64,000 nt of DNA, from positions 6,450 to 70,449 of the forward strand of contig JAJZAH010000004.1 in assembly GCA_021799535.1 (NCBI GenBank), read 5' to 3'. How positions within the stretch are numbered: position 1 is the stretch's first letter; each line of letters opens with the position of its first letter. A program made the translations under genes and the position numbers. This stretch comes from Nanobdellota archaeon (lineage in GTDB: Archaea; Nanobdellota; Nanobdellia; Pacearchaeales; GW2011-AR1). The notes under the pieces are model-generated. The model was not told the DNA's origin. It was given only the letters and a program-made list of their open reading frames with translations, and did no database searches. Positions 35,973 through 51,950 of this stretch are shown one piece after another.

Positions 35973-38900
35973 TTAATGAACAATCAGATTAAGTTTTTTT
36001 TCCAAGCGATTAAATTTGTCTTTATTTTTCTCAAGTTGATAATTCATCATTTTCATCTCCCTATAAATAGAGTCATCCTTGATTCCTTCCTCAATCAAAG
36101 ACTTGGCTCTGCTCAAAATCCCCATCTTGTAGTCCCAACCAGAGACAATATCTATAACCGGATCCAAATAGGATCGAGTCGATAGTAAAAGTTCTCCTCT
36201 CCCTCCATATCCCCCGACGATAGCACCCCTAACAGAAGCGGATTTCCCAATCATCTTTCTATAAGCTATAGTAGTTTGTTTTCCGACATCAAGTATCCCC
36301 ATCTTTCCTCTTTCTGCAATCGCACCGTAGTGGTGCCTGTCACCAGCGAAGTAGTAAACAGCTCCCTCCCTCGTGCCTGTAGCCTGCGCAGAAATCATGC
36401 TTATCTCACTCCTTCCATGCCACATCTTGTGCGTCGCGACTCCTTTTATGACTCCGTTAGCTCCCGGGAGGTCAATCATCTCATAAGTGAATCCCTGACC
36501 CGAAGCACTCTGTCCTCTCCTCAGAAGATTCTGCTCCTGATACTTCCTGTCGAACATTGATGCGACTACATTCGCCTCATCTTCTGCATTCCCTCTATGG
36601 GACCCCATCCAGTGGTTCCCGGCTCCGATAAAAAGAGGGATCTTATTTTCCATCAGCTCAGCATTAGGAGCATACAGTACCTCCATGAATGTAGCTTTTT
36701 GATCTTCCGGCTTAAACTTCGGCTGACCTTCCTCGAACTCTTTTGCATAAATCTGAGTAGCTTCAAGTATCTCTCCGTCGCTTGCACCTTTCTCCCTCAT
36801 TCTGTGCTCAAGTATACTGAGTCTCTTCATGAATCCAGGAACGTCATTTGAAACCATAAGGAAGTCATTTGTAGCAGACTCTCTCTTTGAGTCATAATCC
36901 CTGTACCCAAGCTCACCATGCAAGGCTTCAGTCATGATGGAATATTTTATGTTGTTGAATCCGTTCGTCTGCAAGGCAACAAGTTGGCTTGCTCTTATTC
37001 CGTCGATGTTCGACACTCTTCCAGGCATGGAGAAAGAACCGAGATGCATATCATTCTGCAGAAACACACGATATATTTCAGGCCTGACCTCATCAAGCAA
37101 TGAGTTAATCTCAGCTTTTGTCTTCTCCGATTCTTTTGCCTTCCCTTCAAGTTCGAATTTTTTCAGGTCTGATTCGAGCTGAGAATACCTCTCCCCGTAT
37201 TTCTTTCCTATTCCCTTGAGATAATCATCATCTACAAATATAGATTCGTTGCTTTGGTCAGGATGCTGGATATAAAATACCGGTCCGGTCGTATTCCCCC
37301 CTTTCACAATCCTTTTTGCGGGCCATGTCCCCTTGTTGCCTTTCACCATCAGAGTCCCGAGTTTCTGAGTGTCGTGTCTCGTTGGAAGTTTTATGTAAGC
37401 TGTGATTATTGGAGCTCTCGAATATTCTCCCTGCACTGTCGTCTGATCTACAGTCATCTTTTCTTGCATATTATATCCGTCAGCGCCCCAACTCGTCAAT
37501 GCTATGTCAGGAAAAGCAAAATCTCTCTTGTTATGTTCTTTTTTCAATCTTGGTTTAACCTTTCCCTTTTTTACACCCTCGGAAATCTCGCTCTCATGAA
37601 AACTCAATAGTTCACTGAATGTATTAAGCACAGGTTCATTCGATTTTTGGGCGTTTGTCCTTGGCATTGAGAGGATAGTTGTCCCTATTGGCCTGTTAGG
37701 ATCCGCCTCCCTGCCTTCAAGAGAATACTGGGGATCCGGAATCTCTATATTGATTATATCATCCGTGTGAAGGAAAAACTTGTGGCTTTTGCCATTAATT
37801 TTGCCCACTTCGGAGAAAAGTGTCTTGTAAAAATCCTCGTTTATCTGCTTTGTAACCATATAAAATGCTTTCGCTTCAGTAGGTGAAATAGCGATTTTCT
37901 TTGTAAACCACGCTGGTCCTTCGGAGAATTCGGCCATCAAAGAGTTCTCAAACCTTTCGGCATCATGGATCTTGTCTTCCAGAGAATCTATCTTCTTCGA
38001 GTTGGCCACAAATCGGTCCTGGCTTGATTCATAGAAATCTTTAAGTTTATTAAAAGTTGTCAGGTCTTCATGAGCTTTTCGGGTAGTGTCGTAGAACAAA
38101 GAATCGAACTCTTCTTCTTTCCTTTTATCGTCAATCTTTCTTCCGCTCACTTCTTCGTACCTTTTCTTCACCTTATCGTGGAGAGATTTAAGCATCTTTG
38201 TATCTGTCTTTCCCCTTGTCCTGAAAAAACTATCCATTATCTTTCTGTAATCTTCCCCGCGCTCCGGGAATTCGCCTTCGCCAAATTTCTCTTTTCTGGT
38301 GCTTACATGAGAGTACACCCTTTCTCCGATGAGCTTCTTGATGAGATTCTCCGAAAGTTCAGATTTCAAGCCCTCTAATTTTCCTCTCCATTCAGGAAGT
38401 TTCTTAGTGGCATTTTTCATCTCTTGGTGAAGCTTCCTCAATTTAGGAAGAAGGGTATCAAGAGTCTCGCTCATATTTGCATAATCATTATAACTCCATT
38501 GGTAATGTATCGGAATTTCTTCAGGGATATTAGCAAAAAGAGGAGCAACTTCGTGAGCAACGCTTCTTGCGGCTTCCTCTGTTGAAGAAAGCGTGTTTAT
38601 AACATTCTGTTCAAGATTTTTATGGGCCCTTTCGCTGAGCTTAAAGCCTCCTAAATCCAAGATTTGGTTTATCTTTCTGAGTTCTTCCTCCTTCCCATTA
38701 TCACCATTTTTTCCTGATTTATCAAGCCCTGTCAAAAGTGCTCTCTGATTTTTTGCTTTCCCAAACATCTGGATGAATTCCGGCATCAACCCCCCCTGAA
38801 TAACATAGCTTGAGAGCATTTCATTAAGCCCCATAGACTGGCGCACAATCTTCTCTCCCAAAAAAGCATCATTGTTCGTGAAAAGAGTTCCCGTCCCCAT

Positions 38901-39362
38901 TTCTGCAGAGAACACGTGGATTTTAGGAACACGGTAATCACTAAGAGTATCATCCCACCTTAATTTATGCTGATTTACAACTGCGCTAATCAGTGCCTCT
39001 TCTTCCCCAAAAAGGCCATTAGCAGTAGGCAAATATTTAGGATCTGGAATATGCCAGACATCAGCAATTTTTTTCAGCTGGGATGAAATTTTCTGTTTTG
39101 CGACTTCAAGTTTTTTCGATTCATGCTTGAATGAGCTCGGCTTCTTCGGATCATAAGCTGATTCATCGAAACCGGACATTTTCATAGCAATCTGATTCAG
39201 GGTCGGAACAGGGCTCTGAAATATCGTCGGAGTTATGTAAATGTTTCCCGTGTCTCGGGGACTCATCTGCTCAATTGCTTTCAAAAGAACTCTGTCCTCA
39301 GGAGTTATAAGAAGCCGCTCTTCCAAAACTTTTGGAATTTTTCCGCCTCTTTTTACTTCCAT
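35973..39362 (-). CDS. Large (1129 aa) protein with C-terminal divergent metallophosphoesterase-like motifs
   Basis: The N-terminal ~700 aa is charged, helical and unknown. The C-terminal part carries, in calcineurin-fold order, LQNDMHLGS (DxH), GAGNHW (GNH), THKMWHG and AGDRHHYG. Confidence 0.45.
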   Translation of the reverse strand: MEVKRGGKIPKVLEERLLITPEDRVLLKAIEQMSPRDTGNIYITPTIFQSPVPTLNQIAMKMSGFDESAYDPKKPSSFKHESKKLEVAKQKISSQLKKIADVWHIPDPKYLPTANGLFGEEEALISAVVNQHKLRWDDTLSDYRVPKIHVFSAEMGTGTLFTNNDAFLGEKIVRQSMGLNEMLSSYVIQGGLMPEFIQMFGKAKNQRALLTGLDKSGKNGDNGKEEELRKINQILDLGGFKLSERAHKNLEQNVINTLSSTEEAARSVAHEVAPLFANIPEEIPIHYQWSYNDYANMSETLDTLLPKLRKLHQEMKNATKKLPEWRGKLEGLKSELSENLIKKLIGERVYSHVSTRKEKFGEGEFPERGEDYRKIMDSFFRTRGKTDTKMLKSLHDKVKKRYEEVSGRKIDDKRKEEEFDSLFYDTTRKAHEDLTTFNKLKDFYESSQDRFVANSKKIDSLEDKIHDAERFENSLMAEFSEGPAWFTKKIAISPTEAKAFYMVTKQINEDFYKTLFSEVGKINGKSHKFFLHTDDIINIEIPDPQYSLEGREADPNRPIGTTILSMPRTNAQKSNEPVLNTFSELLSFHESEISEGVKKGKVKPRLKKEHNKRDFAFPDIALTSWGADGYNMQEKMTVDQTTVQGEYSRAPIITAYIKLPTRHDTQKLGTLMVKGNKGTWPAKRIVKGGNTTGPVFYIQHPDQSNESIFVDDDYLKGIGKKYGERYSQLESDLKKFELEGKAKESEKTKAEINSLLDEVRPEIYRVFLQNDMHLGSFSMPGRVSNIDGIRASQLVALQTNGFNNIKYSIMTEALHGELGYRDYDSKRESATNDFLMVSNDVPGFMKRLSILEHRMREKGASDGEILEATQIYAKEFEEGQPKFKPEDQKATFMEVLYAPNAELMENKIPLFIGAGNHWMGSHRGNAEDEANVVASMFDRKYQEQNLLRRGQSASGQGFTYEMIDLPGANGVIKGVATHKMWHGRSEISMISAQATGTREGAVYYFAGDRHHYGAIAERGKMGILDVGKQTTIAYRKMIGKSASVRGAIVGGYGGRGELLLSTRSYLDPVIDIVSGWDYKMGILSRAKSLIEEGIKDDSIYREMKMMNYQLEKNKDKFNRLEKKLNLIVH

Positions 39363-40826: not shown

Positions 40827-40966
40827 GCGCTAGTGGTCTAATGGTAGAATGCGAGCTTCCCAAGCGAGGGACACCTACGGTTTCCCACCGCTCTGTCTTC
40901 CATTCACGGGAGAAGTGTTTCCTGCGGAAAGAGCTCGCGACCCGGGTCCGATTCCCGGCTGGCGCA
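40827..40966 (+). tRNA. tRNA-Gly (CCC; UCC if the loop is phased 1 nt differently) with a ~69-nt intron
   Basis: Exon 1 is GCGCTAGTGGTCTAATGGTAGAATGCGAGCTTCCCA (40827-40862). The intron is ~40863-40931. Exon 2 is AGCTCGCGACCCGGGTCCGATTCCCGGCTGGCGCA. The acceptor, anticodon (CGAGC/GCTCG) and T (CCGGG/CCCGG) stems pair only after removal of the insert. Confidence 0.8.
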
Positions 40967-40967
40967 T
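40956..40967. repeat. attL core (3' end of tRNA-Gly)
   Basis: CGGCTGGCGCAT, identical to 50128-50139. Confidence 0.7.
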
Positions 40968-41037
40968 AAAACCTTTTTGACCATTTGTAGGGGATACGAT
41001 ACGGACTGATTAAAAATAAAGTCCGTCTAAAAAGGAC

Positions 41038-42180
41038 ATGAAAATAGATCCATACAAATGCAAAGAAAAGTACCTTAGATGGAAAAAGGAAACCCAAGAT
41101 GGAATCCCCAGACTAAGCAAGGTTAATTCAGACCTCATCCATCAATTTCTTTACGATATGGAAAGCGGTTTAAACATCTCTGGAAGCAAAAAGGGAGCAA
41201 GAAGTTATAATCGACTACTCGCTCTGAAAAATCGCCTCATAATTCTTTGTATGAAGTTTAACGATATATTCAATGTGGGGAACATCACTAATATCACGGA
41301 AGAACAAATTCATAGATTTTTTACGGATATGCGAAATGGAGATATAAGGAAAAATAGCGGAGAAGAGTATCGGGATGTTAGTGATCTGATAAAAGATTTC
41401 AAGACTTTTTGGCATTGGCATATGAAAGTAAGCAAAAAACGTGGGAAAGACATTTTAGATATAACCTTAGACCTTGATTTAAGCAAAGATAAACCAAAAT
41501 GGGTTTATTTGAACGAAGAGCAAGTCAAAAAGTTATCAAACTTGGCAAAATACGAATATAAGGTCTTGATAATGTTCCTGTACGATTCGGGCATACGTGC
41601 GCCTACGGAACTTATCAACGTAAAAGTGTCGGATTTCTATAATGATTTCAAGGAATTAAATATTCGTGACGAAATAAGCAAAACTTTCGGGCGAAGAATA
41701 AAAATAATGTTCTGTTCGGAAATGCTAAAACAATACGTAAAAGACAAAAAATTAAGCGAAAACGATCAATTGTTCAAAATAAATTACATTGTCGCTAATC
41801 GATATCTTAAAAGATTAGCGAAAAAAGTTTTCGGAGATAGAGAAAGTTTAGCCGGTGAACGATATTCAAAGTTAACACTGTACGATTTTCGCCATAATTC
41901 TTGCTGTTATTGGTTGCCGAAATATCCGTCAGAAATTGCGTTAAAATATCGTTTCGGCTGGAAAAAGTCGGATAAGATCCATTACTATTCGGAATTATTG
42001 GGGATGAGGGATACGATTTCCGAAGAAGATCTCCTTGTAGATGTGACGAAAACGGAGATTGAAAAAAGATTGATGATATCCGAAAAAAATAACGAAATTT
42101 CGAAAGAAAGAATTAAAGCTTTAGAGGAACAGATTATCGAGATCAAAAAGTGGGCTGAGAGGATAGAAGAAAGAATGTAA
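41038..42180 (+). CDS. Tyrosine recombinase / integrase
   Basis: 380 aa with LYDSGIRAPTELINVKVSD (box I Arg), LYDFRHNSCCYW (box II) and a late ...IHYYSE Tyr. It lies 70 nt from the tRNA 3' end. Confidence 0.7.
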   Translation: MKIDPYKCKEKYLRWKKETQDGIPRLSKVNSDLIHQFLYDMESGLNISGSKKGARSYNRLLALKNRLIILCMKFNDIFNVGNITNITEEQIHRFFTDMRNGDIRKNSGEEYRDVSDLIKDFKTFWHWHMKVSKKRGKDILDITLDLDLSKDKPKWVYLNEEQVKKLSNLAKYEYKVLIMFLYDSGIRAPTELINVKVSDFYNDFKELNIRDEISKTFGRRIKIMFCSEMLKQYVKDKKLSENDQLFKINYIVANRYLKRLAKKVFGDRESLAGERYSKLTLYDFRHNSCCYWLPKYPSEIALKYRFGWKKSDKIHYYSELLGMRDTISEEDLLVDVTKTEIEKRLMISEKNNEISKERIKALEEQIIEIKKWAERIEERM

Positions 42181-42188
42181 ATAATTCA

Positions 42189-43412
42189 TTAAAGTATTTT
42201 ATTAAAGTCAGGATTTTTTATCCGTGCCAATTCCTCCTCTCTTTTTTCCAGTATCCTAGGTTTATGCTCATTGTAATAATCTAAAATAAATTCGTAATTT
42301 ATATCTAAATCTCCTTGATCTCTTAATTTCTTCAATGATAAAAAAGTTTCCTGGCAAAATCTTCTAAAAAGATCCTCTTTCCCATATTGCATTATTGTAT
42401 TCAAAGACACATAATCTACTTCATTTTTGTTTAACTCATAATTTAAGCAAAAATCTAGCAGAGAATTTAAAATTTCATTATCTTTTTTTTCAAAAAGGTT
42501 TTCATTAAAGTAATCCAACGATAAACCCAAATTTATGCTTCCAACCATCCTTGTTAAACAAGCATAACACTTTCCGCAGTTCTTCCCCCACCTACTGGTA
42601 ATGCAAGAATGGGTCTTTGAGAGGATAGAATCATCAGAAATCAAACTCATCATTTCTGTCTTTGTAAAGTCTTCGAATGGGAGCACGATATCAATCGTTC
42701 TGTTTAATATGATTTCAGAGATTTCTTTTGATATTTTCAAGACTAACGGATGGGTGGTATAAGTGATCGTATCAAATGGGGCGAATTTTGGTTGTCGCAT
42801 TGTAACCCCACACTCAGAGATGATTATCCTACCAGCCTGGACAAAAGATGATAAAATTGCTCCATAAAGAACATATAAAAAACCCCTCAATTGGGAATAT
42901 CCCTTTCCCATAGAAGGAGCTAAAAACTTTACTAATTCTATGCCCCTCTCTCCTAACAACACCTTCCTTATCTCTTCAACTTTTTTTGTAATCCAGCCAA
43001 GATCTTGATGAGCTACGAAAAGCCCTAAAACTTCCCCGTAATAATCTTTGCTTTTTATTATTCCCAAAGTGCTATCAACACCTCCGGAAAATAAGCAAAT
43101 TGTACTACAATCCTTGAAAGTTGGGCTCTTCTTTTTATCCTTGAGATCTTTTTTTACTAGAACAAAAGAAATGTCCTCATACAAAACTTCAAGAACCAAG
43201 ACACGCAACAAATAAGAAATGCGTTTTATCTCATCCTCCGAGAGAGTGGAATAATAATCTATCCTAACTGTACCTATAGTTTTACCCTCTTTTATTTTCT
43301 TTTCTAGCATAAATAGAGTATTTGCTATCGAATAAAGTGTGGCTGAGATTTCATCTGACCAAATAAAATCCATTATCTTATTAGGAGATCCGTAAAAAAC
43401 TTTTTTTCTCAT
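42189..43412 (-). CDS. QueC-like PP-loop ATPase with N- and C-terminal extensions
   Basis: 407 aa. It has the PP-loop CLFSGGVDSTLG (aa 106-117) and C270-x8-C279-x2-C282-x2-C285 (SCITSRWGKNCGKCYACLTR), which is the QueC zinc-site spacing. About 100 aa precede the core and about 115 aa follow it, both unknown. Confidence 0.7.
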   Translation of the reverse strand: MRKKVFYGSPNKIMDFIWSDEISATLYSIANTLFMLEKKIKEGKTIGTVRIDYYSTLSEDEIKRISYLLRVLVLEVLYEDISFVLVKKDLKDKKKSPTFKDCSTICLFSGGVDSTLGIIKSKDYYGEVLGLFVAHQDLGWITKKVEEIRKVLLGERGIELVKFLAPSMGKGYSQLRGFLYVLYGAILSSFVQAGRIIISECGVTMRQPKFAPFDTITYTTHPLVLKISKEISEIILNRTIDIVLPFEDFTKTEMMSLISDDSILSKTHSCITSRWGKNCGKCYACLTRMVGSINLGLSLDYFNENLFEKKDNEILNSLLDFCLNYELNKNEVDYVSLNTIMQYGKEDLFRRFCQETFLSLKKLRDQGDLDINYEFILDYYNEHKPRILEKREEELARIKNPDFNKIL

Positions 43413-43747
43413 TTTTTTGCAAGTTCATCAATAACCTGTTTTGCTATCTTAAGCCTAATTTTCTTCAAATCATCTGATAATAGTTTATCCTCGAATAAGG
43501 AAACAAATTCTTCGGTTGTTCTAACCTCATATTTTTCAAGGTAATATTCCGTTTCTCTATCCAAAATTTTTCTTATTATTTCCTCTTTTATTTTCTGTCT
43601 TAGCTGCGTCTTATCCTCAATTGTGAGGGTGTTCACACTAGAAATTAATTCTGGAGATTTCAACATCTGTTCAACCATTGATTCTAAATTATAAGAACTA
43701 AACTCAAGGTATAGCTTACAAGCTTCTCTTAAGGGCATGGAGCTCAT
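43409..43747 (-). CDS. Small helical protein; unknown (operon member)
   Basis: 112 aa, Glu/Lys-rich. It has ATGA overlaps at both ends. Confidence 0.5.
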   Translation of the reverse strand: MSSMPLREACKLYLEFSSYNLESMVEQMLKSPELISSVNTLTIEDKTQLRQKIKEEIIRKILDRETEYYLEKYEVRTTEEFVSLFEDKLLSDDLKKIRLKIAKQVIDELAKK

Positions 43748-44109
43748 TTTTTGCCCCCCACAGTTTTTACTGCATTTTCTACAATGATGCGATCTACTTC
43801 CTTAGGAATCCTAATCTTATTCGATTTTTTTACATGAGACCAAGATTTAGAAATCTCTATCTTAAGGGAATCTAAATTGGTTATCTTTTTCCATTTTGAA
43901 TAATTTCTTATTATTTCTGGAAAGAATTTAGCGGAATAAGAGGAATATGAAATTGGTTTTTTCGATTGCACAAGGAGCGAAAAAGTTTGTGTGGGAATTT
44001 CTTTTATCTCTTTATTTTCAATATATGCCTTTATGGTCTTTATGCCTTTAGTTACTTCTCTAGATCCGCCCAAAAAATCCCGAGTAGGATACGATTTTCT
44101 TCCGCCCAT
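43744..44109 (-). CDS. Small basic protein; unknown (operon member)
   Basis: 121 aa. It begins MGGRKSYPTRDFLGGS and ends ...KTVGGKK. There is an ATGA overlap with the next gene and a 2-nt gap after the previous one. Confidence 0.5.
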   Translation of the reverse strand: MGGRKSYPTRDFLGGSREVTKGIKTIKAYIENKEIKEIPTQTFSLLVQSKKPISYSSYSAKFFPEIIRNYSKWKKITNLDSLKIEISKSWSHVKKSNKIRIPKEVDRIIVENAVKTVGGKK

Positions 44110-44111
44110 TT

Positions 44112-44708
44112 TTAATCCATTATGAGATCATTTAGATTATTTTGTATTAAGGATTCATGCTTTTTTGTCTTATCGAAGATAACAAACCCCCATAAAGTTA
44201 TAGCAAATAGTAAGATTTGAAATAAAATTATTAAAAAAATGTAAAAAGAAATACTAATCCCAAAAATATTTAATTGAAGTTGTAACAGATTTGAATTCTC
44301 AACTATTGATATGAATGTCCCCATTACAAAGAGAAAAATAAAAAGGGATAAAAACAGCTTTTGCTTCAAAGAGTCCAAACCACTTAATTCGTTAAGTTCT
44401 TCTTCATTCTTTTTTAGCTTATCAAATACCTCTTTTCCTCCTTTGGATAAGGTTGTCCCTTTCAAGATAGTCATTAACTCCTTGAGGTATCTTCCAGGAT
44501 CCATTTCCTTAGCTTTAGATACTAAATCTTTCAGCTTATTGTACTTCTCTTGGGTGAGCCTGGTTTTAGACAAAAAATGGGAGATTTTCCGTTTTGTCTC
44601 TTTAGAAAGCCCGAATATACTCTCACTCCACCCATAGATAGCAAAGAAGATTGCTAATGCGGATAACAGGTATACATCTCCTAGCATAACATTACAAGTT
44701 TTTAGCAT
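44112..44708 (-). CDS. Membrane protein (1 N-terminal + 2 C-terminal TM helices); unknown (operon member)
   Basis: 198 aa. The TM helices are DVYLLSALAIFFAIYGW, LFLSLFIFLFVMGTFISIV and ISFYIFLIILFQILLFAITLWGFVIF, with a charged helical middle. Confidence 0.55.
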   Translation of the reverse strand: MLKTCNVMLGDVYLLSALAIFFAIYGWSESIFGLSKETKRKISHFLSKTRLTQEKYNKLKDLVSKAKEMDPGRYLKELMTILKGTTLSKGGKEVFDKLKKNEEELNELSGLDSLKQKLFLSLFIFLFVMGTFISIVENSNLLQLQLNIFGISISFYIFLIILFQILLFAITLWGFVIFDKTKKHESLIQNNLNDLIMD

Positions 44709-44816
44709 TTTTACAGCTTTCTATAACTTTTAGTGCTTATGGGGACGTAAGACATTTATTAAGTAGGATAGTCTACAACATAAATTATTTTGTATTCTCG
44801 ATGATTTTCTTGAAAG

Positions 44817-45113
44817 ATGGAAATTGAAGAAACACTTGATAAAATTGAGGAACATTTAGAATTCATAAACAGGAAAATCGATGAAAAAGTCAGAGAAAAA
44901 GAAAATTCCAAGATTAAACCCCTTTGGAAAAAATCTGGAAAAAAGAATTCTCACCTGAATATGCTAATTGAAACCCCCTTGATGGAACAAGTTGAAAAAG
45001 AAGCTAATAAACAGGAGATTAGTGTTGCTGAATTTGTGAGGAGAAAATTAAGAGATGATCCGCAGTTAGATAGAATTGAGGGGAAAGTAGATTCTTTGCT
45101 GAAAATGGCTTAG
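44817..45113 (+). CDS. Ribbon-helix-helix (CopG-like) protein; possible controller of the R-M gene
   Basis: 98 aa. The C-terminal half HLNMLIETPLMEQVEKEANKQEISVAEFVRRKL follows the RHH pattern. It lies 34 nt upstream of the R-M gene. Confidence 0.5.
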   Translation: MEIEETLDKIEEHLEFINRKIDEKVREKENSKIKPLWKKSGKKNSHLNMLIETPLMEQVEKEANKQEISVAEFVRRKLRDDPQLDRIEGKVDSLLKMA

Positions 45114-45147
45114 AAATCCATAAAAAGTCTTATTTCTTGTCTGGGAC

Positions 45148-48048
45148 ATGGATAAAGAAAAGGCAAAAGAAAGAATTTCACAGTTTGTCAAAGAATTTTC
45201 CGAAATCCCAGAATCTGAACTTAACGATAAAAAAGAAGAGGACATTAAGTGGCTCTTTATTGAACCCCTACTCGACGCTTTAGGTTGGCAAAAAAAAGAC
45301 ATAGAAAAGGAGGCTAGTGTCTTAAATGGAAGAGCCGACTATCTTATAAGAAATGGGAATCAAGAGACATTAGTTATTGAGGCAAAGAAAACCAGTGTTC
45401 ATCTTTCTGAAGAAGAGGGTAGACAAGCCGTTTCATATGCTTATCACAGAAAAATAAAATTTGCCGTCCTCACAAACTTCAAATATATACGTGTTTATCA
45501 TGCACTTTCTAATGTAAGAAAAATAGATCATAACCTTCTGTTCTGGTTGGATTTCAAAGATTTCATAAGCAACTTCGATAAATTATGGCTTTTGTCAAAA
45601 GAAAGTTTTGATAAAGGGGAACTTGAAAAATTAATCCCTTCAAAAGACCAAAAAACTGCAGTTCCGATTGATGAAAGAATACTTGATGATTTATTACACA
45701 TCCGTGAGTGGCTTTCAAAAGAGTTGAAGTCAAAAAGGATGGAATTAAAAGACGGATATGTTGATGAAATCGTACAGATTTTTATTGATAGGTTAATCTT
45801 TATGAGGTCTGCTGAAGATAGGGGATTGGAAGCTGAAGATTTTCTACTCAAAATAATGCAAGCCGTCCAACAAGGCGAAACAGATAAAAATTTATGGTCA
45901 CTTTTAAAGGATCAGTTTATAAGGTTCGATAAAACTTACAATTCTAAACTTTTTGCGACGGGGATCTTAGAACAATATGGATTTTTCTCTGACGACGTTT
46001 TGAAAAAAGTCATCAAAACTATTTATTACGGATTGGAGTCAACTCAAGAAAAGTATATGTTCAATGAAATTCCTGGAGACCTCTTTGGTTCAATCTATGA
46101 ACAATATCTTGGGACAATTCTCTCTGGAACTGAAAAAAGAATTAAGCTGGAAGGTGGAACAGGAAAAAGGAAAAAAATGGGGATATATTACACCCCTTCT
46201 TATATCGTCGATTATATCGTGAAAAATACAGTTTATGAGTATATTAAAGACAAGTCCATTGATGATATCCTCGATGTAAAAATCCTTGATCCTGCTTGCG
46301 GTTCGGGATCTTTCATAACGAGAGCTTTCGTTGAGGTCTGTAATGTCATGAGGGATAAATTAAGTAGAGGAGAAAAATCAAAAAATTGGTCTTCATTTAA
46401 GGAACCGAGCAAAGTTCTTAACTTTTCACAAAAATCAACCATCCTAAAAAATTGTATTTATGGTGTTGATTTAGATGAGAAAGCGGTTGAGCTTGCTCAG
46501 TTAAATTTATTATTGAAATGTCTTGAAGGGGAGACAAGAGATTTAAAAAATAGAAAGCTACCAAACCTGCTGGATAATATAAAATGTGGCAATTCTCTTA
46601 TAGATGACCCTAAAATCTCTGATCATGCGTTTAACTGGAATGCTTCATTCAAAGATGTCATGAATGCTGGAGGTTTTGATGTTGTGATTGGAAACCCTCC
46701 TTATGTAAAAATACAAACATTTTCAGATTACGAAAAAAAGGAGAATGATTACCTCGTGAGCGTTTTTAAATCGTCAACTGGGAATTTTGATTTATATGTG
46801 TTATTTGTTGAAAAAGGGTTTAACTTGATAAAAGAAGGTGGTGTTTTGGGATTCATCCTACCCCACAAATTTTTTCAGTCCGAGTTTGGAGTCGGGCTAA
46901 GAACATTCTTACAAGAAAAAAAGGCCTTGAAGTCAATAATTGATTTCAGAGACAACCAAATATTTGATGGTGCAACTACCTATACTTGCTTATTATTTCT
47001 TAATAAGGCAAATAATAATACTTTTAAGTATTTGGGAATAAAATCAACAATTAATATGCCCCAAGTGTTAGAAAACCCAAGTGGATTTTCAAATCTTTTT
47101 TTTGATTCATTGGATTCAAAAAAATGGATTTTTTCATTGGATAACAGGATTTTAGACAAAATTAAAAAGGACTCACAATCAAACTTAGGAGAATTTACCT
47201 CTAAGATATTTCAGGGGATTGCTACCGGAGCAGATAAGATATTCTTTTTACAAAAAATTGAAGACAAAAACCACGATCTCAGGGTTTATTCAAGAGGACT
47301 GAACAAAGAGATTATTCTTGAGGAAGAACTTCTTAAACCTTTAATTAAAGGAAATATGCTAAAGAGATATTCCCCAATTAAAAGTGATGAGCTTATTTTA
47401 TTCCCTTATGCGTTGGACATTAATGGAAAAGTGAGACTAATACCAAGGGGTGATTTAAAGGAAAATTTTCCAAAAACATATGATTATTTGAAAAATTTTG
47501 AAAAAGAGTTGAGGGATCGCGAAAAAGGACGGTTTGACAATCAAAGATGGTACTGTTATTCACGAAACCAAGGTATGGGAGACATAAGTAAGAAGAAAAT
47601 ACTCACCCCAGACATTTGCAGTCAAGGAGAGTCCTCTTTAGATGTCGATGGAACTTTTTTAACAACAACAACTGTTTACGGCATCATACCTAAAAATAAA
47701 AATAATTTTGAAATTTTGTTGGCTATACTAAACAGTAAAGTTCTGGAGTACTTTATAAAAAATACTGGTAGTATACTTAGGGGTGGTTTTTATCGTTATA
47801 AAACAGCCTATTTGAAACCATTTCCTATTAAGGAAATTTCAGATAAACAAAGAGAGCAATTCATAAGATTAGTAAACCAGATGCTTGAACTCCAGAAAAA
47901 ATATCATGATGACAAAGTTCAAGGGCATGAGAAAGAGAGATTAAAGCAGCAAATTGATAATATTAATTATGAAACTGATCAGGAAGTTTACAAACTCTAT
48001 GGACTCACGCCCGAAGAGATAAAAATCGTCGAGGAGAGTTTAAAATAA
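45148..48048 (+). CDS. Type IIG restriction-modification enzyme (fused nuclease + N6-adenine methyltransferase + specificity region)
   Basis: 966 aa. The N-terminal HSDR_N/PD-(D/E)xK-like block is LLDALGW...GRADYLI...LVIEAKK. SAM motif I is ILDPACGSGSF and motif IV is VVIGNPPYVK. The C-terminal region is TaqI/Eco57I-like. Confidence 0.8.
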   Translation: MDKEKAKERISQFVKEFSEIPESELNDKKEEDIKWLFIEPLLDALGWQKKDIEKEASVLNGRADYLIRNGNQETLVIEAKKTSVHLSEEEGRQAVSYAYHRKIKFAVLTNFKYIRVYHALSNVRKIDHNLLFWLDFKDFISNFDKLWLLSKESFDKGELEKLIPSKDQKTAVPIDERILDDLLHIREWLSKELKSKRMELKDGYVDEIVQIFIDRLIFMRSAEDRGLEAEDFLLKIMQAVQQGETDKNLWSLLKDQFIRFDKTYNSKLFATGILEQYGFFSDDVLKKVIKTIYYGLESTQEKYMFNEIPGDLFGSIYEQYLGTILSGTEKRIKLEGGTGKRKKMGIYYTPSYIVDYIVKNTVYEYIKDKSIDDILDVKILDPACGSGSFITRAFVEVCNVMRDKLSRGEKSKNWSSFKEPSKVLNFSQKSTILKNCIYGVDLDEKAVELAQLNLLLKCLEGETRDLKNRKLPNLLDNIKCGNSLIDDPKISDHAFNWNASFKDVMNAGGFDVVIGNPPYVKIQTFSDYEKKENDYLVSVFKSSTGNFDLYVLFVEKGFNLIKEGGVLGFILPHKFFQSEFGVGLRTFLQEKKALKSIIDFRDNQIFDGATTYTCLLFLNKANNNTFKYLGIKSTINMPQVLENPSGFSNLFFDSLDSKKWIFSLDNRILDKIKKDSQSNLGEFTSKIFQGIATGADKIFFLQKIEDKNHDLRVYSRGLNKEIILEEELLKPLIKGNMLKRYSPIKSDELILFPYALDINGKVRLIPRGDLKENFPKTYDYLKNFEKELRDREKGRFDNQRWYCYSRNQGMGDISKKKILTPDICSQGESSLDVDGTFLTTTTVYGIIPKNKNNFEILLAILNSKVLEYFIKNTGSILRGGFYRYKTAYLKPFPIKEISDKQREQFIRLVNQMLELQKKYHDDKVQGHEKERLKQQIDNINYETDQEVYKLYGLTPEEIKIVEESLK

Positions 48049-48088
48049 AAAATAGAAATTTTCGAATCAATAGGAGTGTTAATTTTGC

Positions 48089-48661
48089 TTAGTGTTCAAT
48101 TTTTTGCATAAAATTTTTAGCACTTATAATTTTTACTTTAAATTCTTTTTCTAACATCTTACTTAAATACAAATCTTTATCTAACGTAACAAAATATTCA
48201 CATTTGTTTAATTCTGCCTGATAAATTAATATTATATCGAATGTTGAAAATCCTTCTTGGGATAATTTGTTTATTCTATTCATATCCATCTCTTCGTCTT
48301 TCATTGGTTCTACTCTATGTTCGGAATGATTAAAAAAAGAGAGTATAATCATATTTACCCCATCTATCTGTCCTTTGTTTAATCTTATATTCTCCTCTGC
48401 ATCTGCAAATTCCTTTACAGTATAGCCACTTTCCAAGATTATTTCATCTAATTTTAATTTCATTAAGATATCCCTCAGCTCCAATTCATTCCACCTTGTC
48501 ATTATATTTAAAAAATTCAATTTTTCAAAGCTGGTTAATAGAGGACGTAGCTTGGCCAATCTTTTTGGTAATGAGACGCCTTTATCCTCTTTATTATAAA
48601 TAAATGTAAATTTAACTAAAAGGTTGGTATCAAACATTATTCGCTTAGGAAAGTGTTCCAT
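48089..48661 (-). CDS. PIN-domain-like nuclease
   Basis: 190 aa with an N-terminal IMFDTNLL, an internal acidic residue (NELE), FDIILIYQA and a C-terminal FVTLDKDL. Confidence 0.5.
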   Translation of the reverse strand: MEHFPKRIMFDTNLLVKFTFIYNKEDKGVSLPKRLAKLRPLLTSFEKLNFLNIMTRWNELELRDILMKLKLDEIILESGYTVKEFADAEENIRLNKGQIDGVNMIILSFFNHSEHRVEPMKDEEMDMNRINKLSQEGFSTFDIILIYQAELNKCEYFVTLDKDLYLSKMLEKEFKVKIISAKNFMQKIEH

Positions 48662-48670
48662 CTTAAAAAA

Positions 48671-48817
48671 TTATCCAAAATATTTTCTTATTGCTTTTTT
48701 ACTGACAATTCGCTTTGGAAATCTTCTTTTATAACCCGAAACTCTTATTCTTTTAGAGCTGAAAATTCCTGTACTTATCTTTTTATAATGCCCCCTAACA
48801 TTCAGTCTTTTTTTCAT
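48671..48817 (-). CDS. Possible very basic 48-aa protein upstream of the PIN gene
   Basis: Hand-translated: MKKRLNVRGHYKKISTGIFSSKRIRVSGYKRRFPKRIVSKKAIRKYFG. It ends 9 nt before the PIN ATG. There is no homology support. Confidence 0.25.
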   Translation of the reverse strand: MKKRLNVRGHYKKISTGIFSSKRIRVSGYKRRFPKRIVSKKAIRKYFG

Positions 48818-48968
48818 ATTTTTTTTAGGTGTTTCTTCCTTAAAACCTTTTTCCTATCCCGTAACTCTTAAATAAAATCACTCCCTTGAATAATCATGAA
48901 AAACGTTATGAAATATGCCCGGCGGGACGCTCTCGGGGCTGTGGTTTACGTCGTGGCTGTCGCTCTCC

Positions 48969-49157
48969 TTATGTATTTTTTGAGTAGAATATCTTTCTTA
49001 GCTTCCTTAAAAGAATAATCTCTTCTTCCGTCGCCGGATCCTCAGCTTTACGTCTAAGGAGTTCAGAAATCGAAATTCCTAAAGATTCCGCTTCTTTCTG
49101 AAGTTTAGTCAGTTTTTCCGTCTCTATCTGAAGATGTATCTGAGAATTCATTCTCAT
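48969..49157 (-). CDS. Ribbon-helix-helix (CopG-like) protein
   Basis: 62 aa. IHLQIETEKLTKLQKEAESLGISISELLRRK follows the RHH pattern. Confidence 0.5.
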   Translation of the reverse strand: MRMNSQIHLQIETEKLTKLQKEAESLGISISELLRRKAEDPATEEEIILLRKLRKIFYSKNT

Positions 49158-49339
49158 TTTTACTCTCTAGCCTCCTCACTACTCTTTTTAAGATTTGTAT
49201 GGCTTCTTCCCCTACATCCTCTTTTATGTTTATCATATGGTATTAACCTAAAGTTAATAGTACCATGATTACTATATAAATCTTTCGCAGTATTTCCTTT
49301 AAGAGAATACTTTAAAAACTTGATTAATTATAATATTGT

Positions 49340-50095
49340 ATGAATAAGATCGGAAGAACACCTATAAAAATTACAGAAAGTTTGCCTTTTAGTGAGGTGA
49401 TTCTTTTGGTGGCTTCAGACCAAAATTATCCTCAAAAAATTGCAGAGATAAGAAAAACAAAACCTTCAGCAATTGTAAAACAATTAGATATCTTAAAACG
49501 TAAAAAATTTCTTAATAATCCTGTAAAAGAAAAGCTGTTAAATAAAACTCTTTACACTGTAAACTTTAATAAAATAAATGAAGAATTTATAGAGTTTATC
49601 AAAAAAAGATTAAACCAATCTCAAAGTTTAAATAAAAATTTGATACCGCTTAATATAAATTTAAATGTTTTAAACGATAAAAAGGTTTATAGAAATAGTT
49701 ATTTGACAGCTTTATTTAAAATTGTGTTTAATCGTGTTGGGTTATCACATGAAAAAGTTTCAATAAATCATTTATTTGACATAATGATTAAATACGATTT
49801 ATTATCAAAGTTTTCTTTAATCAATAGTGCATCAGAAGAAAGGGCTGTTGATAAGATTAATGAAGAGGGAAGAGCAAACTCAGGCAATCCAAGAGCCTTG
49901 ATTGATAATCAAACAGAAAGTATAAAAAAGAGCTTTGGTATAAATATCAAGAATCAAGGAGAAGAAATGAAAGAAATTGAAAATTTAAGAGAGATATGTG
50001 AACGTCTTAAAATAGATCCTCTTTTCCCAAATATTTCAACAGGATTTCAAACAAACAAGCTAAAAGAAATGCTCAAGAAAACGGAAAAAAACTAA
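49340..50095 (+). CDS. Winged-helix DNA-binding protein of the element
   Basis: 251 aa. The N-terminal YPQKIAEIRKTKPSAIVKQLDILKRKKFL is wHTH-like (ArsR/MarR-like). The rest is unknown. Confidence 0.4.
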   Translation: MNKIGRTPIKITESLPFSEVILLVASDQNYPQKIAEIRKTKPSAIVKQLDILKRKKFLNNPVKEKLLNKTLYTVNFNKINEEFIEFIKKRLNQSQSLNKNLIPLNINLNVLNDKKVYRNSYLTALFKIVFNRVGLSHEKVSINHLFDIMIKYDLLSKFSLINSASEERAVDKINEEGRANSGNPRALIDNQTESIKKSFGINIKNQGEEMKEIENLREICERLKIDPLFPNISTGFQTNKLKEMLKKTEKN

Positions 50096-50127
50096 TCCCC
50101 ATAATTTGGTCAAAAAGGTTTGCTCCT

Positions 50128-50139
50128 CGGCTGGCGCAT
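50128..50139. repeat. attR core (partial tRNA-Gly 3' copy)
   Basis: CGGCTGGCGCAT. It is not part of a complete tRNA. Confidence 0.7.
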
Positions 50140-50140
50140 T

Positions 50141-50518
50141 TTATTTTCTGTTCCCGGCATGCAAGAGATCTTTTCTTTTTATGATGAGCTCACGTGGTTT
50201 GTTTTTCAGTTTCCATGAGCCCTCCTTCATCCAGAAATACTTCACCACATCATGACCTGTAAAAACGTGGACAGGGACATCTCTTTTGTGATCACGCCAG
50301 TCCTGGGATTTCAAGGCCGTAAAGATACCCGCTTCATAGATTTCATCATCTTCAGGATTTATTCTTTCAATCACACAAAACGGGCTACCTGGAGCTATCG
50401 TATGAAGAATGACATTCTCTTTCCCTCTGAAAGAAGAGACTAACTCATCGTTCCCTTTGGAATTCCTCCCCAAAAAGATTTTCGTTCCGGTCGAAAGTAT
50501 CAGCTCCCTTGGCTTCAT
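50141..50518 (-). CDS. NFACT-R_1 / DUF814 domain protein
   Basis: 125 aa with FLGRNSKGNDELV...ILHT..PGSPFCVI, the DUF814 pattern. Confidence 0.6.
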   Translation of the reverse strand: MKPRELILSTGTKIFLGRNSKGNDELVSSFRGKENVILHTIAPGSPFCVIERINPEDDEIYEAGIFTALKSQDWRDHKRDVPVHVFTGHDVVKYFWMKEGSWKLKNKPRELIIKRKDLLHAGNRK

Positions 50519-50594: not shown

Positions 50595-51044
50595 ATGAAA
50601 GTCTACAGTAGCGGAAAAGTGGAAGAATTCTCGCCTTATGGACTCCTGACCTACATGTTATTAAGCGACCTGATTTTCGAGAAAGGGAGTATCTTCCGTG
50701 CTGAGATACTTGAAAGAAAAGTCTTATCAAATAAAGGGAATGCTCTTAATTGCTCTGTTAGGGTGAGCCCGATCTTAGCTTCCATCATAAACATAGGCGG
50801 GAACCCCGTAGGGTCAGGATGGATGAATTACATGAAATTTCTTGAAGAGGCTGGATGTAAAAAACCTCTGGGATTATACAATCTGGATTCGCTTATCGGG
50901 AAAGACGTCTATCTCCTAGCCACGGAGAGTTCCATAAACAGAACAACACGGGGCGTGATTACCCAAAAAGGATTCAACGAAATTAAATTTATGATAAAAG
51001 GGAACGATCTTGAAAAATTCATGGTTGGCAATCATCAACATTAA
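50595..51044 (+). CDS. Hypothetical protein
   Basis: 149 aa from the internal Met. TTTATAAG lies ~29 nt upstream. The 5' part of the track ORF overlaps the divergent gene. Confidence 0.4.
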   Translation: MKVYSSGKVEEFSPYGLLTYMLLSDLIFEKGSIFRAEILERKVLSNKGNALNCSVRVSPILASIINIGGNPVGSGWMNYMKFLEEAGCKKPLGLYNLDSLIGKDVYLLATESSINRTTRGVITQKGFNEIKFMIKGNDLEKFMVGNHQH

Positions 51045-51074
51045 AGTTATAAATTTAATTGGATAAGATATATC

Positions 51075-51950
51075 ATGATTTACGGATATCCCACAAATGA
51101 AAAATTTATAGACAAAGCTTATCTGCTTCTTGACAAGCTGAGAAGAAAGCAATTATGGCAGAAGGACACTTTGATCGTAGCCTTGGACAAGTCGGCAAGG
51201 CCGCTTGCATATGCCTTAAGAAAATTATCACAGGAAGAAGGGAAAGCGGCCCCAGACATGAGGTTTTTCAACTATAGCAGCCACTTTGAAAACTCTGACT
51301 TTGAACCTGATGAAGTTGCAGATTTCATAAGAGAAAAAATCGGCCCTGAAAAATTCTCGGGGTACAAAAGCATCCTCTTACTTGACGACCACCTTTATAC
51401 AGGAAACAGCCTGAAAAACATGAAGAAAGTCATAGAGAGCTATTTCTCAGGGAATGAAGGTAAAAAGGCTATAAACCTGGCCGCTCTAGGGACTACTGAG
51501 GGCCATTTCAAGATAAAAAAGAGGGATTTCATATTTGTAGATAAGGACTTATCGACCCAAAGAGCAGATGAAGCTCAAACAGGTGTAAGAGATAAAGAAG
51601 ATTACGAAAAATCGAACATTCAACTTAGCCATGTTAGACTATCTGAAAGGGAAAAGGACAAAGAAGTTTATGCAGACTTCATAAAAAACAGGGGTGAATT
51701 GGCAAGAGATATAAAAAATTATATCCACAAAAGACAGATCCAGGAAGGTAAGACAAGTCTGCTTGAAAAGGCAGTCCGGATTTTTTCAATCATTTTCATT
51801 GCCTCGGGCTTAATCTTAGGCTATGGCGGAATTACCGGGAATGTTACGGGAAATTCCGCAACGTCGGACTCATGGGGAGTTGTGCTAATTGTGTTCGGAA
51901 CACTGGGCTTGGTAATTTCGAGAAAAATTTCAAGAAACTCAAGATTATGA
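51075..51950 (+). CDS. Phosphoribosyltransferase-like domain protein with a C-terminal membrane anchor
   Basis: 291 aa. It has a PRTase-like loop (ILLLDDHLYTGNSL) and two C-terminal TM helices. Confidence 0.4.
   Translation: MIYGYPTNEKFIDKAYLLLDKLRRKQLWQKDTLIVALDKSARPLAYALRKLSQEEGKAAPDMRFFNYSSHFENSDFEPDEVADFIREKIGPEKFSGYKSILLLDDHLYTGNSLKNMKKVIESYFSGNEGKKAINLAALGTTEGHFKIKKRDFIFVDKDLSTQRADEAQTGVRDKEDYEKSNIQLSHVRLSEREKDKEVYADFIKNRGELARDIKNYIHKRQIQEGKTSLLEKAVRIFSIIFIASGLILGYGGITGNVTGNSATSDSWGVVLIVFGTLGLVISRKISRNSRL

Follow-up and report, generated by a model that had tools for sequence, protein, structure and literature searches.

Results

The window analysed here is the whole stretch of 64,000 nucleotides (nt) of contig JAJZAH010000004.1, and all positions are numbered within it. 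The window is archaeal: archaeal 16S and 23S ribosomal RNA (rRNA) and RNase P are present, and the labels of its relatives (Woesearchaeota, Pacearchaeota or Nanoarchaeota) all denote DPANN lineages. The host, itself a DPANN archaeon, comes from mine-drainage sediments. Our subject is a segment of 9,172 base pairs (bp) at 40956–50127, which carries a tyrosine integrase gene, a restriction-modification gene and a four-gene cassette with a QueC-family enzyme, and which is very probably an integrative mobile element that its own integrase put into the 3' end of a transfer RNA (tRNA) gene, tRNA-Gly(CCC). The original prediction for this DNA had placed an integrated element of about 9.2 kb at an intron-containing tRNA-Gly gene, and the empty sites, the terminal repeats and the composition described below all support it.

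The tRNA-Gly target and the terminal repeats

The integration target, tRNA-Gly(CCC), lies at 40827–40966 on the plus strand and scored 40.1 bits with the full Rfam model RF00005, against a gathering score of 29. ARAGORN at its default settings did not call this intron-containing gene; with introns allowed, it returned Gly(CCC) with a 69-nt intron, i(38,69), at about 40863–40932, just 3' of the anticodon. Folding of the precursor gives a cloverleaf around this intron. In two of the related genome loci or contigs that we compared, which are designated by L-numbers (here L015 and L016), the orthologous tRNA-Gly(CCC) is intron-less. Because the core of the attachment (att) site lies outside the intron, the element cannot have delivered the intron. 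Many tRNAs that adjoin integrases of the same family carry long introns too (20–105 nt).

The 12-nt direct repeat CGGCTGGCGCAT occurs in two plus-strand copies, at 40956–40967 (attL) and 50128–50139 (attR), with no third copy in the window, and none of 100 dinucleotide-preserving shuffles held even one copy. The original prediction had these positions right and its reading of the repeat as 12 nt of the tRNA plus one base slightly wrong: the left copy is made up of the final 11 nt of the tRNA (tRNA positions 63–73, with the discriminator A at 40966) and one T. There is no tRNA body at the right-hand repeat. Directly to its left lies a degenerate T-arm-like stretch of 11 nt, GGTTTGCTCCT, which agrees with GGTCCGATTCC in the T arm of the tRNA at 5 positions; taken together, the right-hand repeat and these 11 nt match the tRNA at 17 of 23 positions.

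Perfect inverted repeats lie inside the direct repeats, as had been predicted, and they measure 15 bp where 14 had been counted. The left arm (40969–40995, plus strand) opens with the perfect 15 bp (40969–40983, AAACCTTTTTGACCA) and continues as an imperfect extension. The right arm (50095–50121, minus strand) is the complement of 40969–40995, with the perfect 15 bp at 50107–50121. Beyond these 15 bp the arms pair imperfectly to about 27 nt, with a GGGGAT box included. The spacers between arm and direct repeat are 1 nt on the left and 6 nt on the right. When pairs of 30-nt flanks were drawn at random 20,000 times from the composition of the island, no arm of 13 bp came up, and 12 bp was reached in 0.005% of the draws. 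The repeats are unique in the window, which counts against the concern that they might be frequent elsewhere, and rare in random draws; they are therefore no chance matches.

Composition, empty sites and evidence of insertion

The content of guanine plus cytosine (GC) is 32.2% within the element and 40.7% outside. All 1-kb bins from 41001 to 50000 lie at 28–34%, and the adjoining bins at 39–40%. The predicted step at the boundaries is there, and these computed values replace its approximate figures of 30% inside and 40% in the flanks. The profile is thus not flat: GC steps down at both boundaries, and tetranucleotide distance is raised across the island. The rRNA operon deviates equally, and composition alone is not decisive for that reason.

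The 9.2-kb segment is absent from seven related species (L015–L021). In the window, the YhbY and S2 genes form the left flank and an NFACT-R (DUF814) gene (50141–50518, minus strand; PF05670) forms the right flank of the host. In the seven species, NFACT-R stands directly beside the YhbY and S2 genes, and relatives have it directly beside tRNA-Gly and YhbY. The predicted arrangement of an empty site, tRNA-Gly followed directly by the DUF814 gene, is seen in the closest long contig, L016 (453 kb), where tRNA-Gly(CCC) ends in ...CGGCTGGCGCA|TTTC and abuts the 3' end of the NFACT-R gene. This is the predicted empty site.

A second empty site came from one mine-drainage metagenome run, X3. A 46-nt contig of this run, ACCCGGGTCCGATTCC followed by CGGCTGGCGCATTTTATTTTCTGTTCCCGG, joins window positions 40940–40967 to 50140–50157, leading from the T arm (40940–40955) through a single copy of the repeat into the right flank (50140–50157). 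The X3 contigs break exactly at 40938–40967 and 50128–50157, and the contigs of 6 kb and 5 kb that flank the empty site show no further branching. The junction is identical to the window strain on both sides and has no match to L016. Therefore, the same population holds genomes without the element, cut at precisely the repeats. The segment is an insertion with exact boundaries, and it rebuilt an intact tRNA.

Exact-protein look-ups with the integrase and both flanking proteins found the island in all contigs of the window's own species, at 99.96–100% identity. The assemblies come from six samples, all with the island and with at most 5 mismatches in 18–21 kb. An exact-pattern search of the Joint Genome Institute (JGI) metagenome contigs for attL, attR, attP and attB gave no match. 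Since the integrated form was absent as well, that collection does not hold this organism and its null result is uninformative on excision.

At positions 1135–1300 of L015, whose NFACT-R is 75% identical to that of the window, tRNA-Gly(CCC) is inverted relative to the flanks and its last 13 nt (CCGGCTGACGCAT) are repeated 75 nt later. The arrangement resembles what a lost element, or an integrase-mediated rearrangement at the same hotspot, would leave behind. Farther out in the right flank of the window, two open reading frames (ORFs) of 149 and 291 amino acids (aa) with host-like GC (50595–51950) separate the NFACT-R and NUDIX genes; they are absent from all seven relatives, where NUDIX abuts NFACT-R. 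On the other side, a 1,129-aa ORF adjoining the S2 gene (35973–39362) has no Pfam match, and L016 has a homologue of 47% identity at the same position.

The integrase and its family

An intact tyrosine integrase gene of 380 aa (41038–42180, plus strand) lies close by the tRNA, as predicted, with its ATG 71 nt after the tRNA end instead of 70. The protein only just passes the cutoff of PF00589 (27.7 bits against 27.1), matches the integrase family phrog_216 at 1.5e-9 and has archaeal XerA as its best match among PDB sequences (E = 0.022). Residues R187, K215/K222, R285-H286, W308 and Y316/Y317 are invariant among 20 relatives of 58–65% identity, and in the family alignment the first His of HxxR is replaced by an invariant Y282. 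The catalytic R, K, R, W and Y were assigned by motif, not by structural superposition. A model of the protein, of medium quality with a predicted local distance difference test score (pLDDT) of 71.7, gave 22 Foldseek matches at E <= 0.001 over 290–370 columns. All of these are either tyrosine recombinases, among them XerA, XerH, lambda Int, Tn1549 Int, IntI and Cre, or repressor-type relatives that share their fold; the best is XerA 5hxy (E = 1.2e-6). As modelled, the integrase has the two-domain fold of tyrosine recombinases, a helical core-binding domain and a catalytic domain, with invariant residues at the assigned catalytic positions.

Two more specific identities were rejected. The protein is not XerA, as it scores 39.6 bits with NCBIfam NF040815, whose cutoff is 220, and occurs in 2–3 copies in several genomes; its absence from the syntenic site in relatives also counts against this identity. 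It is not an SSV-type ('suicidal') integrase either: those have attP within the integrase gene, which integration splits, whereas here the frame is unbroken and the att site lies 71 nt ahead of the gene.

A word-indexed search returned 2,138 matches to the integrase, of which the top 120 were all 59–68% identical and about 385 aa long. We gathered 80 genome loci of this family, with 2–3 copies in several genomes. At least 32 of the 80 have a same-strand tRNA just upstream of the integrase, and in most of them the gene starts 71–90 nt past the tRNA. The targets are tRNAs for Asp, Glu, Gly, Ser, Leu and Tyr, many of them with introns. IMG/VR held no relative of the integrase, and no description of the family turned up in the literature searched.

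Between the left arm and the integrase gene, 12 nt upstream of the ATG, lies a palindrome, ACGGACT-N12-AGTCCGT (41001–41026, plus strand), which is centred on the TATA-like TTAAAAATAAA and may be an operator over the integrase promoter. TATA-centred palindromes are also found upstream of many other integrases of the family (L032, L043, L049, L067, L076 and L089 among them). They suggest a dimeric repressor, possibly a recurrent ribbon-helix-helix-like protein.

Layout of the attachment site

We aligned 32 sequences from members of the family at the discriminator base. The base after the discriminator is T in all 32, and conserved T(+9), TTG(+11–13) and GGG(+24–26) follow; the left arm of the window fits this T(+1)/T(+9)/TTG(+11–13)/GGG(+24–26) pattern. 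When the 80 loci were searched for an exact direct repeat with exact inverted arms, only the window passed. This search missed others because most elements exceed the 10-kb flank or have imperfect arms, and allowing mismatches brought out L081 as well as five attP sites in unsplit form. In L081, an independent element of 9.7 kb is bounded by a 13-nt repeat (TCGGTCGGGGCGT) and has inverted arms of 30 nt that pair imperfectly. The unsplit form (L041, L052, L067, L075 and L077) consists of inverted arms around a core that resembles a tRNA 3' end, with no tRNA body, and the arms are longest in L075 (38 nt with two mismatches).

Seven cases have definable arms, namely the five unsplit sites and two reconstructed attP sites, one put together from the ends of the window element and one from those of L081. 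In 7/7 the dyad of the arms falls on the base following CGG or TGG, which is tRNA position 66. The arm separation varies from 15 to 35 bp and the dyad position is constant. In L081 and L058, identity likewise starts at position 62 or 63. The original prediction had proposed the combination of att direct repeats and terminal inverted repeats as a boundary. It holds as such and, as read from these alignments, it is the att layout of the whole integrase family and not peculiar to the window locus.

The dyad on tRNA position 66 leads us to predict strand exchange in CGGCTGG (40956–40962), which is tRNA positions 63–69. In the mechanism that we propose, the free form would have carried a nearly symmetric attP of about 70 bp. 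Rebuilt from the element ends, it would read right arm TGGTCAAAAAGGTTT, GCTCCT, core CGGCTGGCGCAT, A and left arm AAACCTTTTTGACCA, with the predicted junction sequence GGTTTGCTCCTCGGCTGGCGCATAAAACCTTTTTGACC. Integrase protomers bound to the two inverted arms would bring attP together with the T-stem and acceptor end of the tRNA, and strands would be exchanged across the 7-bp overlap CGGCTGG, which opens the repeat and has tRNA position 66 at its centre. On the classical picture of tyrosine recombinases, this overlap would need to be identical in attP and attB. Since the new tRNA 3' end would come from the element, identity would extend from the left edge of the overlap as far as one base beyond the tRNA; left of the overlap, the element would bring only the degenerate T-arm copy (GGTTTGCTCCT vs GGTCCGATTCC). 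We also considered a crossover in the T loop, which was rejected as attP and attB differ there (TTTGCTC vs TCCGATT).

Elements that have nothing in common but the integrase still conserve the arms, which makes the integrase the most likely protein to bind them. The inverted arms are thus putative integrase-binding sites, and the exact cleavage positions given here are predicted ones. We infer the crossover position and the role of the arms on good grounds. For archaeal integrases, a review notes that the effective site tends to be found nearer the 5' end of the sequence in common and depends on further bases beyond it (PMC8371274), and the window att layout agrees with this.

Integrases that are 80–83% identical sit at different tRNAs (Glu/Ser, Glu/Asp and Gly/Glu), and the target therefore appears to be set mainly by the attP core and not by the protein. 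Nearest integrase neighbours share the target amino acid in 12 of 30 cases, against 7.3 expected, which is a weak link. The idea that the choice of tRNA is encoded in the protein was dropped, as integrase similarity only weakly tracks the target; comparison of these sites suggests that the attP core, rather than the integrase, sets the tRNA target.

In L058, three copies of a tRNA-Asp 3'-end repeat (CGGCGTGGGCGT; 9904, 13240 and 14835) lie downstream of one tRNA, which implies tandem or nested elements. Planctomycetes-assigned contigs carry the integrase family at about 60% identity (L077 9868–11492, L067 9880–11636 and L052 3300–4599). One Planctomycetes-assigned contig is a 734-kb Phycisphaerae contig, and the flank of L052 reaches 58% GC. 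These loci have an unsplit, palindromic attP-like site without a tRNA. In L077, the genes nearby are of bacterial type (AbiEii, HerA-like, ThiF, zf-HC2 anti-sigma and BlaR1-like). These occurrences point to cross-domain spread or a different use of the site.

A QatC-like four-gene cassette

The QueC-like operon of the original prediction is borne out as a conserved four-gene cassette on the minus strand (42189–44708), which encodes proteins of 198, 121 and 112 aa and then an enzyme of 407 aa. This last protein (42189–43412) belongs to the QueC family by its PF06508 match (6.7e-10). It matches QatC in PADLOC at 8.8e-12 and QatC in NCBIfam with 58 bits, far below the cutoff of 280. The best fold match of its model (pLDDT 92) is, over the full length, QatC of the QatB-QatC complex (9y01/9y02), with a template modelling score of 0.61–0.64 over 378–404 columns; Cap9 and QueC match only the core. 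The 112-aa protein (43409–43747, minus strand) had no match in Pfam, PADLOC, PHROGs or NCBIfam, and it is kept beside the QatC-like gene in L104 and L103. The 121-aa protein (43744–44109, minus strand) has an N-terminus, MGGRKSY, that is invariant in the alignment. The first gene of the cassette (44112–44708, minus strand) encodes the 198-aa protein, whose hydrophobic stretches we read as probably membrane-spanning and which has positional homologues in L104 (193 aa) and L102 (186 aa).

The cassette occurs in the same order in L104 (4717–7227), where it adjoins another type IIG enzyme. It is also present in L102 (4762–7239) and L103, as part of an element that carries an integrase and type IV secretion-like genes as well. 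In L058, a QatC-like gene follows the integrase in a 3.3-kb repeat-bounded unit, whose only other ORF is NUDIX-like.

QatB needs an N-terminal glycine motif for defence (PMC13279940). The cassette resembles QatABCD in the full-length fold match of its 407-aa enzyme to QatC and in the invariant N-terminal Gly-Gly of the neighbouring 121-aa protein, which by analogy with the required motif of QatB is a candidate substrate of the QatC-like enzyme. In contrast to QatABCD, a protein with hydrophobic stretches and the 112-aa protein take the place of QatA and QatD, and the hosts of the cassette are DPANN archaea, with one homologue labelled Patescibacteria. Neither the QatA ATPase nor the QatD TatD-like nuclease was found among the island proteins in Pfam, PADLOC or NCBIfam, and because both are absent the cassette is not a Qat system by membership. 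It may nevertheless work like Qat, possibly as an archaeal defence system of Qat-like type whose effector is a membrane protein. An archaeal QatC-like cassette was not described in the literature searched.

Other cargo

The predicted type IIG restriction-modification enzyme is confirmed by a full-length match. The 966-aa protein (45148–48048, plus strand) matches PADLOC REase_MTase_IIG (PDLC03604) at 5e-174 over residues 2–961. Its Pfam domains are Eco57I, N6_Mtase, MmeI_Mtase, MmeI_N, TaqI_C and HSDR_N_2, and nuclease, gamma-class N6-methyltransferase and specificity domains are thus joined in a single polypeptide.

For the smaller proteins the predicted families fared less well. The two proteins named as ribbon-helix-helix proteins have weak matches, all below cutoff. 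The first, a CopG/ribbon-helix-helix-like protein of 98 aa (44817–45113, plus strand; PF12441 at 4.9e-4), lies upstream of the restriction-modification gene and has tblastn relatives in 12 other integrase loci. The second, of 62 aa (48969–49157, minus strand), has VapB-, NikA- and MobA-type matches, and relatives in 8 integrase loci. The protein of 190 aa (48089–48661, minus strand), which had been called PIN, matches no known family: no significant match appeared in Pfam, even with E up to 10, or in PHROGs, NCBIfam, PADLOC or the PDB sequences. We rejected a VapBC pair of PIN and ribbon-helix-helix proteins, as the 190-aa protein has no PIN match and the 62-aa protein matches VapB only at E = 0.001, below cutoff.

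The last gene encodes a protein of 251 aa (49340–50095, plus strand) and ends 11 nt before the perfect part of the right arm. Its N-terminal ~90 aa are conserved in 62 distant relatives. The winged-helix-turn-helix assignment of the original prediction finds a faint echo in ArsR- and MarR-type matches in 3 of 32 relatives, and a winged-helix fold is possible and unproven for the 251-aa protein. Pfam, PHROGs and NCBIfam gave it no family assignment, and since the other integrase loci lack it, it does not belong to the backbone of the elements.

Pfam and PHROGs revealed no recognisable gene for replication, transfer or virions in the element, which therefore behaves as a small non-autonomous defence island. 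The integrase alone is common across the elements of the family, together with ribbon-helix-helix-like proteins in some. The cargo differs between elements, with a giant RHS/Tc-toxin-like protein in L081 and a reverse transcriptase in L088. The latter is a 5,031-bp contig whose ends overlap by 136 nt, which would be expected of a 4.9-kb circle; besides the reverse transcriptase, it has a family integrase, whose reading frame appears interrupted.

Discussion

The empty sites, the exact repeats and the adjacent integrase gene make it very probable that 40956–50127 is a mobile element inserted into tRNA-Gly(CCC) by its own integrase. Several points weigh against this reading. The catalytic C-terminal part of the integrase model is weak, with a pLDDT below 50 at residues 272–339, and the arms, 15–35 bp apart, are more widely spaced than those of lox- or dif-type sites. 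The integrated form alone was seen in the five other runs, and every assembly carries the island. In X3, the flank contigs (depth 7.3–8.6) and the island contigs (6.2–8.5) are covered similarly, for which reason the empty-site fraction is probably small and is poorly measured; the 46-nt contig has a depth of 4, against about 8 for its neighbours. The circular (attP) junction that the original prediction had pointed to was not seen in the contigs of six runs, nor was any branch at 50139 or 40956, although contigs drop rare variants and this absence is weak evidence. Present-day mobility is not demonstrated by the contig data. One could hold that the element integrated once and is now fixed and immobile, a view that concerns its present activity only and not its origin. 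The empty site may then represent a never-infected sister strain, not an excision product, because the five other runs and all assemblies carry the island; the near-identity of the six samples' assemblies, the lack of an attP junction and the restriction of the empty site to one of six runs fit this. However, the integrase frame is intact with all conserved residues kept, the 12-nt repeats and 15-bp arms are perfect, and the X3 junction matches the window strain on both sides between unbranched contigs of 6 kb and 5 kb. We regard a fossil as a possible outcome that is on the whole unlikely.

That the element is an integrated plasmid or virus, which could replicate or form particles after excision, seems improbable to us. 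The apparent 4.9-kb circle of L088 carries the family integrase, several relatives show an unsplit attP, and four island proteins match no known family; archaeal replication and virion proteins often go unrecognised. Yet three of these proteins belong to the QatC-like cassette, which is found in other contexts, and the 251-aa protein is in no other element. PHROGs recognises only the integrase and the QueC-like protein, and IMG/VR is without a relative of the integrase. What the family shares is the integrase, plus ribbon-helix-helix-like proteins in some elements, and the L088 circle combines a reverse transcriptase with no recognisable replication protein. Perfect terminal inverted repeats with a direct repeat outside them also recall a transposon whose transposase made a 12-bp target-site duplication. 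But no transposase-like gene is present and the sole recombinase is the tyrosine integrase; the arms are not symmetric to the repeat (1 nt left, 6 nt right), the repeat is always a tRNA 3' end across the family, and unsplit palindromic attP sites exist. A transposon is thus extremely unlikely. We give hardly any credence to the notion that the repeats arose by chance and the low-GC genes are ancestral core. In its favour nothing is left after testing except that the rRNA region shows composition alone to be indecisive, whereas 0/100 shuffles held the repeat, 0/20,000 draws reached a 13-bp arm, and empty sites exist in relatives and in the same population.

Beyond this one integrated element, we put forward a broader picture more tentatively, as a possibility that the present comparisons raise. 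The window element may belong to an undescribed large DPANN family, found also in Planctomycetes-assigned contigs, of minimal 'integrase plus cargo' islands, with an integrase conserved at roughly 60%, a compact symmetric attP, a dyad always on tRNA position 66 and a target re-programmed via a 12–13-nt core. Among their cargo would be a Qat-like system of archaea, whose QatC-type enzyme would modify the Gly-Gly N-terminus of its 121-aa partner and act through a membrane protein. The literature searched describes no attP of this kind, compact and symmetric with its dyad fixed on tRNA position 66.

The mobile elements of DPANN archaea are poorly charted, and the window locus is a fully bounded example. 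With an empty site in the same population and a family-wide att layout, it offers a testable crossover prediction at tRNA positions 63–69. The locus also shows that archaea with very small genomes take up restriction-modification and QueC-family defence modules on islands that target tRNA genes. The compact pair of integrase and attP could serve as a genetic tool for such organisms, provided that its activity is confirmed.

The element is a tRNA-targeting genomic island of a kind already known, with a tyrosine integrase and a crossover at the asymmetric 3' end of the tRNA. Many tRNA-targeting islands and prophages of bacteria recombine at this asymmetric end. The bacterial islands share with the window element an integrase gene beside attL, a repeat that is the tRNA 3' end, a restored tRNA, a GC content below that of the host, and accessory and defence cargo. 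In contrast to them, the window element has a DPANN archaeon as its host, an integrase that is barely recognisable by sequence, a compact and nearly symmetric attP in place of a 240-bp array of arm sites, and no separate excisionase that we could identify. Recombination at the asymmetric 3' end of a tRNA is sublocation III of Williams 2002, as cited in PMC8371274.

Like Cre/loxP and XerA/dif, the family has two inverted arms around a central dyad region, and XerA is the structure closest to the integrase by fold and sequence. The central region differs, at 15–35 bp here against 6–8 bp there, and attB is without arms. Unlike XerA, several copies of the family integrase can occur per genome.

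Among archaea, short att sites are on record for Thaumarchaeota elements (8 bp), Msmi-Pro1 (11 bp) and SNJ2 (13–14 bp), and the pNOB8-type integrases of Sulfolobales use att sites of 40–50 bp (PMC8371274). That 2021 review of archaeal tyrosine recombinases mentions neither DPANN lineages nor this integrase family. By its traits, the window element can be likened to those with non-suicidal integrases of the pNOB8 type, as its integrase gene stays intact after integration. With the pNOB8-type and short-att archaeal elements it shares a short identity within a tRNA gene, 12 nt here, and a likely need for sequence outside the identical core.

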